Shown here: positions 5,478-5,777 of the stretch, in pieces | How positions within the stretch are numbered: position 1 is the first letter of the stretch | How the letters are laid out: every line of letters starts with the position of its first letter | Source: a virus | Lineage: Duplodnaviria; Heunggongvirae; Uroviricota; Caudoviricetes | Direction: 5' to 3' (one strand) | IMG/VR virus record: IMGVR_UViG_2690316286_000019 | Coordinates: 1-11,459 of that record | DNA length: 11,459 bases | Notes under the pieces: generated by a model | Database searches by the model: none | The model's input: the letters and a program-made list of their open reading frames with translations, nothing else | Told to the model about the DNA's origin: nothing | Made by a program: the position numbers and the translations under genes

Positions 5478-5777
5478 TTAGTCCTCCAAATCAATATCAA
5501 CCTGGTGGTGGGCAATGGTTTCAGCCATGTACCGGATGTGTTCTGCCATGCGCTCCTGAAACTCAACATCATCATCAAATGCGTGGCTGATTGCCTGTTT
5601 ATTGGCACCGTGGCGTTGCAAATGGTCGATGCAGAGCGATTCAAACAGGTGCTGAGGCAGACCTTTTTCCAGGTCGTCCGCCAGTTCCGTTTCTTTTTCT
5701 TCACGAACGATCTGCTGGTAGTGGCGAGCCCATGCCATTTCTTCAATACGATCAAAAATCGGGTAAGCGCTCATCAC
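5478..5777 (-). CDS. Small strongly acidic hypothetical protein (99 aa); candidate DNA mimic or nuclease inhibitor
   Basis: [43 protein letters not shown]...DIDLED with roughly 23 Asp+Glu against 9 Lys+Arg. Its start overlaps the upstream gene by 26 nt and its stop lies 5 nt from the ATPase start. Confidence 0.55.

Follow-up and report, generated by a model that had tools for sequence, protein, structure and literature searches.

The window analysed here, an 11,459-nt stretch of prophage DNA, contains on its minus strand a small open reading frame (5478..5777) whose product was described in the original prediction as strongly acidic and as a candidate DNA mimic or nuclease inhibitor of the Gam or Ocr kind. 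The question raised by this locus is to which protein family the ORF belongs and which host function its product would be directed against. We identify it, with a probability of about 90%, as gam from a lambdoid, Rac-like prophage; the predicted 98-aa product would be an orthologue of lambda GamS that blocks RecBCD as an acidic mimic of duplex DNA.

The translated ORF contains 10 Asp and 13 Glu residues versus three Lys and six Arg residues, resulting in a computed net charge of -14, as had been estimated, and a pI of 4.74. It ranks first in acidity among the 46 window ORFs of at least 60 aa (-0.141 per residue, followed by -0.077 for the next one). Both acidic stretches that had drawn attention to the protein were located in its sequence, DDDVEF at residues 67-72 and DIDLED at the C-terminus. 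The ORF itself is real, whereas its proposed length of 99 aa should probably be corrected by one residue. The regions of homology to Pfam, PDB and lambda GamS sequences all begin at the ATG at 5774, and therefore the gene most likely starts at this codon rather than at the GTG at 5777 and encodes a product of 98 aa. The elements of the gam gene and its translation signals, the roles of the latter being presumed, are as follows:

5478..5774, minus strand: gam coding sequence, probable lambda GamS orthologue, ATG start, 98 aa plus stop codon

5775..5777, minus strand: alternative GTG start, one codon upstream of the ATG at 5772-5774, giving the 99-aa form

5784..5787, minus strand: Shine-Dalgarno-like GGAG, 9 nt upstream of the gam ATG, in ...TTTTGGAGTGACCAGTGATG

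5482..5487, minus strand: Shine-Dalgarno-like GGAGGA for the downstream ATPase gene, within the last gam codons and 9 nt before the next ATG, in ...TTGGAGGACTAAAATCTATG

The reading frame is closed by a TGA two codons ahead of the alternative GTG start (it reads ...KILE*PV there), so no GamL-type N-terminal extension is possible for this gene. The upstream ORF (stop codon at 5752-5754) and gam overlap by 23 nt, counted from the gam ATG, and the gam stop codon (5478-5480) is separated by 5 nt from the ATG of the downstream gene (5472). A consensus scan of the minus strand revealed no promoter-like or terminator-like sites between the upstream ORF, gam and the ATPase gene, and no Rfam family of structured RNAs was found at threshold within 4319-9187. 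What the original prediction called translational coupling is a tight packing of the genes, and actual coupling is presumed. Several ORFs overlap gam or run antisense to it, namely 5505..5912 (plus strand), 5333..5755 (minus strand) and 5591..5845 (plus strand), and these were rejected as shadows of the conserved gam frame. The possibility that gam is itself a chance ORF was ruled out by a full-length Pfam match (E-value 8e-56) and by the dN/dS values of 0.10-0.17 obtained with two other alleles.

The protein is a member of the Gam family. The Pfam profile PF06064 "Host-nuclease inhibitor protein Gam" aligns over positions 1-97 of 98 with residues 2-98 of the 99-aa ORF, at a score of 186.8 bits against a gathering cut-off of 25 (E-value 8.1e-56), and PHROG 259, 'gam-like host nuclease inhibitor', is matched with an E-value of 5.5e-54. 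A sequence search of the PDB returned lambda GamS chains only, from the RecBCD-Gam cryo-EM structure 5MBV and the crystal structure 2UUZ/2UV1; the matches to 5MBV_A and 2UUZ_A (E-value 2.5e-50) are collinear and cover residues 1-97 of the query without gaps. The Pfam scan at E <= 0.1 contained, besides PF06064, just two sub-threshold chance matches and none of the Ocr, ArdA or Mu Gam families. No NCBIfam model matches the gam protein, and its RefSeq name presumably comes from another rule. Structure prediction, which had been proposed as a check, provided no independent structural support for the Gam fold: a single-sequence AlphaFold2 monomer was of low confidence (mean pLDDT 63.4, pTM 0.45), and a Foldseek comparison of this model with the PDB gave chance matches only (E > 5). 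The model was built without an alignment and as a monomer of what is an intertwined dimer, which explains this outcome; it does not count against the Gam assignment because the sequence match to solved chains is direct. Based on the 80.6% identity to 2UUZ, the window Gam would be expected to adopt the helical homodimer fold of GamS.

Comparison with the lambda gam gene (NC_001416) demonstrated that the two proteins have the same length of 98 aa, are collinear and share 79 of 98 residues (80.6%), with 246 of 297 nucleotides identical at the DNA level. All 21 acidic positions of lambda GamS are kept in the window Gam and two more are added; the net charge is -14, as compared with -10 in lambda. 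The Asp and Glu residues of Gam that form ion pairs with Arg or Lys residues of RecB or RecC have been listed previously (Table 1 in PMC9836394), and all twelve of them (D48, E51, E65, E68, E70, D73, D74, D107, E111, E114, E118 and E125 in GamL numbering) are identical in the window protein. The dN/dS ratio calculated by the Nei-Gojobori method is 0.166 versus lambda and 0.099 versus another prophage allele, and therefore the gam frame is under purifying selection. The 19 substitutions relative to lambda GamS include seven within residues 2-14 (N2S, Y5P, Q7F, L10I, A12E, Q13M and S14A), whereas residues 17-92, which form the protein body, differ little from lambda. The N-terminal helix segment is present and of the same length, with a proline at position 5 (the single-sequence AlphaFold2 pLDDT in this segment is low, 51-57). 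Since this is the helix that enters the single-strand channel of RecB, the affinity or specificity of the window Gam could differ from that of lambda.

In lambda, the GamS dimer places its acidic side chains at the positions that phosphates take in duplex DNA, covers the arm of RecB that binds the duplex and inserts its N-terminal helix into the channel for the 3' single-stranded tail; RecBCD can then no longer bind DNA ends, and its nuclease and helicase activities are inhibited (PMC5218532, PMC9836394). With the same length and unchanged contact residues, the window Gam is best explained by this mechanism, and its dimerisation, RecBCD binding and expression are inferred from lambda. The window Gam would thus form an all-helical homodimer with an acidic surface imitating the phosphate backbone of duplex DNA and would occupy the DNA-end binding site of the host RecBCD, its body resting on the arm of RecB and the 3' single-strand channel being plugged by one N-terminal helix. 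Competition with DNA would in this way shut off every activity of RecBCD. After prophage induction, linear or rolling-circle phage DNA would be protected and recombination would be left to the phage's own functions. Two further activities have been described for lambda Gam, which also binds and inhibits the Kiwa effector KwaB (PMC11785009) and whose binding to RecBCD has been reported to trigger retron Ec48 (PMC9836394). Similar to Gam, T7 gp5.9 and T7 Ocr are dimeric proteins of small size and high acidity that compete with DNA, and gp5.9 takes the same site on RecBCD, although the overall folds differ (PMC9836394). Neither gp5.9 nor Ocr demonstrated any sequence relationship to the window Gam in the Pfam or PDB searches.

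The gene order around gam, read leftward, comprises a Rha/Ash regulator, a YdaE-family gene (PHROG 6751), a small ORF, a RecE-family gene, gam, an ATPase gene, a DUF1187 (YdaC-like) gene and the excisionase gene xisR. The two genes that flank gam directly are as follows:

5752..7692, minus strand: RecE-family protein, 646 aa, N-terminal region only (PF06630, E-value 2.7e-36), last 23 nt overlapping the gam start

4375..5472, minus strand: AAA_24 P-loop ATPase, 365 aa (PF13479, E-value 7.5e-14), in the slot occupied by bet in lambda and most relatives

The 646-aa protein aligns with positions 1-622 of the 883 positions of phrog_607 and with positions 1-596 of the 877 positions of the exonuclease VIII model NF007259 from NCBIfam (1064 bits, below the cut-off of 1269), and it has no detectable similarity to any solved chain in the PDB. 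The partial coverage of exonuclease VIII and the absence of a PDB match indicate that it lacks the C-terminal nuclease domain, and the copy of this gene in enteroinvasive E. coli (EIEC) is flagged by RefSeq as 'missing C-terminus'. A similar RecE-family ORF of 657 aa precedes gam in a related prophage locus (L002) of E. coli IGC_RcoliRes_1.1, so the lack of the nuclease domain seems to be conserved in this lineage and not to result from recent decay. The 365-aa ATPase, named 'AAA family ATPase' in RefSeq, is most similar to phrog_1366 (E-value 1e-79), a family without known function, and weakly matches phrog_124 'Sak4-like ssDNA annealing protein' (E-value 9e-9); it has no sequence match in the PDB.

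As in lambda, gam is part of the early-left operon and is followed after the same 5-nt gap by the next gene, which is bet in lambda. The neighbours differ on both sides: the nuclease-less RecE-family gene takes the upstream place of kil, and the AAA_24 ATPase is found downstream in place of bet and exo. The alternative isoform GamL, which is made in lambda, cannot be made from the window gene. The gene after gam is bet, with exo beyond it, in 82 of 98 related loci, and the AAA_24 ATPase in eight, as in the window. The gam gene lies on the same strand as its neighbours, and the term recombination module fairly describes its position; the module in the window is a mosaic variant. The L002 prophage resembles the window in that its RecE-family ORF overlaps the gam start and in the DUF1187, xisR and Rha neighbours, which are common to both; its gam is followed by bet, with exo and ralR beyond it, as compared with the single AAA_24 ATPase gene in the window.

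Other RNA elements were identified around this gene cluster. A full-length RalA small RNA, the antitoxin of the RalR type I toxin-antitoxin pair, is located at 4140-4318 on the plus strand (207 bits), antisense to the DUF1187/YdaC-like ORF. Unlike L002, the window has no ralR toxin gene, so RalA appears to be an orphan antitoxin RNA. A C4 antisense RNA (9188-9275, minus strand, 79 bits) and the Hfq-binding RNA isrK (9300-9376, minus strand, 64.8 bits) were found inside the Rha/Ash regulator ORF as listed (8795-9427), in its 5' portion, in the style of the c4-ant immunity arrangement of the P1/P7 type.

The window Gam is already known. Its gene is 100% identical at the DNA level to that of WP_001277359.1 from EIEC CFSAN029787, which is named "host-nuclease inhibitor Gam family protein" in RefSeq, and several IMG/VR prophage contigs encode the identical protein. 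A megablast search detected DNA of the Gam family in 3,080 of 5,426 complete E. coli genomes, that is, in more than half of them, and the window allele (at least 99% identity) in ten. Among phages, a tblastn search identified the family in 194 records, mostly from lambda and Stx-converting phages. The literature search yielded nothing specific on this allele or on Rac-type Gam in Shigella. Few phage proteins have been studied as thoroughly as lambda Gam, which is also used routinely as a reagent in recombineering. The novelty implied by the word 'candidate' is therefore absent, since the identity of the ORF follows from simple homology to a textbook protein with an existing RefSeq annotation and not from charge and position, and the proposed class of Gam-like DNA mimics and nuclease inhibitors is correct. 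The useful outcome is a clean annotation, by which the ORF leaves the list of unknowns; for specialists, two minor points are of interest, namely the distribution of sequence variation within the family, described below, and the occurrence of an AAA_24 ATPase next to gam, in place of Bet/Exo, in a minority of Rac-like prophages.

In total, 98 full-length Gam genes from related loci encode 16 distinct proteins, 14 of which are clean full-length sequences and fall into three groups distinguished as follows:

lambda type: MNAYYIQDRLEAQSW

Rac-like prophage type, including the window allele: MS[AT][YC] followed by ten further residues

a few more distant forms from Citrobacter and other Enterobacteriaceae

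The first 16 residues constitute the most variable block among the 14 proteins, with a mean column entropy of 0.80 versus 0.28-0.42 in the three blocks of residues 17-92, and nine of the twelve charge contacts are invariant. The family therefore varies mostly in the helix plugging the RecB channel, whereas the phosphate-mimicking surface is largely fixed. The Gam protein of L002 (WP_061892273.1) belongs to the same sublineage as the window Gam, shares the same terminal sequence (11 protein letters not shown) and is identical to it at 88 of 98 positions. A speculative scenario, to which we assign a low probability, is that the remodelled plug helix of the Rac-type Gam (P5, F7, E12) and its extra charge are adaptations that allow it to escape sensors of Gam-bound RecBCD or widen its range of targets, perhaps together with the AAA_24 (Sak4-like) ATPase, which would replace Bet/Exo in a distinct Gam-plus-Sak4-like module.

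How far the surroundings of gam can be trusted depends on the assembly of the window. Single N positions interrupt the sequence at 614, 3849 and 8804, and 21 consecutive N follow at 10639-10659. A 198-nt direct repeat with 95% identity (8606-8803 and 8805-9002) borders the N at 8804, an IS1 element and the N run lie between the copies of a 145-nt repeat with 99% identity (9492-9636 and 10661-10805), and the N at 3849 is flanked by two different excisionase genes. The identity to the EIEC prophage is 98.3% over 3850-8742 and 86% from 8805 on. Judging from the N positions, the repeats and the drop in identity, the window looks like a set of contigs scaffolded across repeated prophage DNA. Only 3850-8803 can thus be relied on as physically contiguous with gam, and the gene order outside this segment may not be physical; the integrase gene (2504-3580) and the right-hand regulatory region may belong to other copies of the prophage. 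A promoter and a repressor controlling the operon were not seen contiguous with gam.

The same allele has been disrupted in other Shigella or E. coli genomes. The Gam protein of Shigella flexneri SFBU1023 is identical over residues 2-98, with a disrupted start codon: the end of an IS3-family element coincides exactly with the gam start (locus L005, 3940-4000), and the element takes the place of the AT in the ATG; the aligned protein hence begins with QSAYP.... Loss of the ATG of this allele to an IS3-family insertion was found in SFBU1023 and in four other loci, including L004 and IMG/VR loci, which shows that gam can be lost in this lineage. The disrupted copy is probably inactivated or uses another start.

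These insertions raise the possibility that the window gene is an intact but idle relic, a Gam-family gene that in this degraded, IS-ridden prophage would no longer be expressed, would be heading for decay and would have no present role. The IS1 element, the truncated ipaH-type ORF described below and the assembly breaks fit this scenario, as does the absence from the window of bet, exo and ralR, which are present in L002, and of a promoter-like site directly upstream of gam. The RecE-family gene without a nuclease domain could be added to this list, but its counterpart of similar length in L002 makes it a feature of the lineage. The gam ORF itself is intact and 100% identical across several genomes, and it retains all RecBCD contact residues. 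Its low dN/dS values also argue against an idle gene, since they reflect long-term purifying selection, although the history that they record is that of active phages. On balance, we consider the relic scenario unlikely.

Another explanation retains the Gam family and changes the target: the Rac-type protein would act mainly on another partner, such as KwaB of the Kiwa system or SbcCD, or would have evolved to escape guards of RecBCD such as retron Ec48. The divergent N-terminal helix, the two clear sublineages that differ in this most variable region and the higher negative charge are compatible with such a shift, and the activities of lambda Gam towards KwaB and Ec48 provide precedents (PMC11785009, PMC9836394). 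However, none of the twelve residues that pair with RecB or RecC has changed, residues 17-92 remain close to those of lambda, and no data point to a different partner, which makes a shift of the main target very improbable. The acidic composition alone would also have fitted a DNA mimic without relation to Gam, of the type that counters restriction (similar to Ocr, ArdA or gp5.9), or a DNA end binder similar to Mu Gam or Ku. The Ocr-like alternative of the original prediction and the ArdA- and Mu-Gam-like identities are refuted by the Pfam (E <= 0.1) and PDB searches, in which no such family was matched.

Among the related loci, eleven encode exactly the GamS protein of lambda. Gam copies with 81% identity to the window protein, that is, at the level of lambda GamS, were found in loci L008-L018, on low-coverage contigs from assemblies of unrelated bacteria including Shewanella, Pseudomonas, Enterococcus, Neobacillus and Kitasatospora, with a length of about 48.4-48.5 kb for several of the contigs. 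The copies in L008-L018 most likely represent contamination of the assemblies with lambda control DNA rather than a real host range.

The gam-carrying prophage is a Rac-like remnant of Shigella or EIEC. Near the beginning of the window, an ipaH-type leucine-rich-repeat ORF (521-1765, minus strand) of only 414 aa was found, with the N at 614 in its 3' part and 60-nt tandem repeats at 1217-1456. The 3' end of this ORF runs into the locus of the SraC/RyeA and SdsR/RyeB small RNAs (463-602), and the Shigella small RNA CssrB was identified at 1894-2076. Together, the ipaH-type ORF, the SraC/RyeA-SdsR/RyeB locus and CssrB point to Shigella or EIEC as the source of this DNA.
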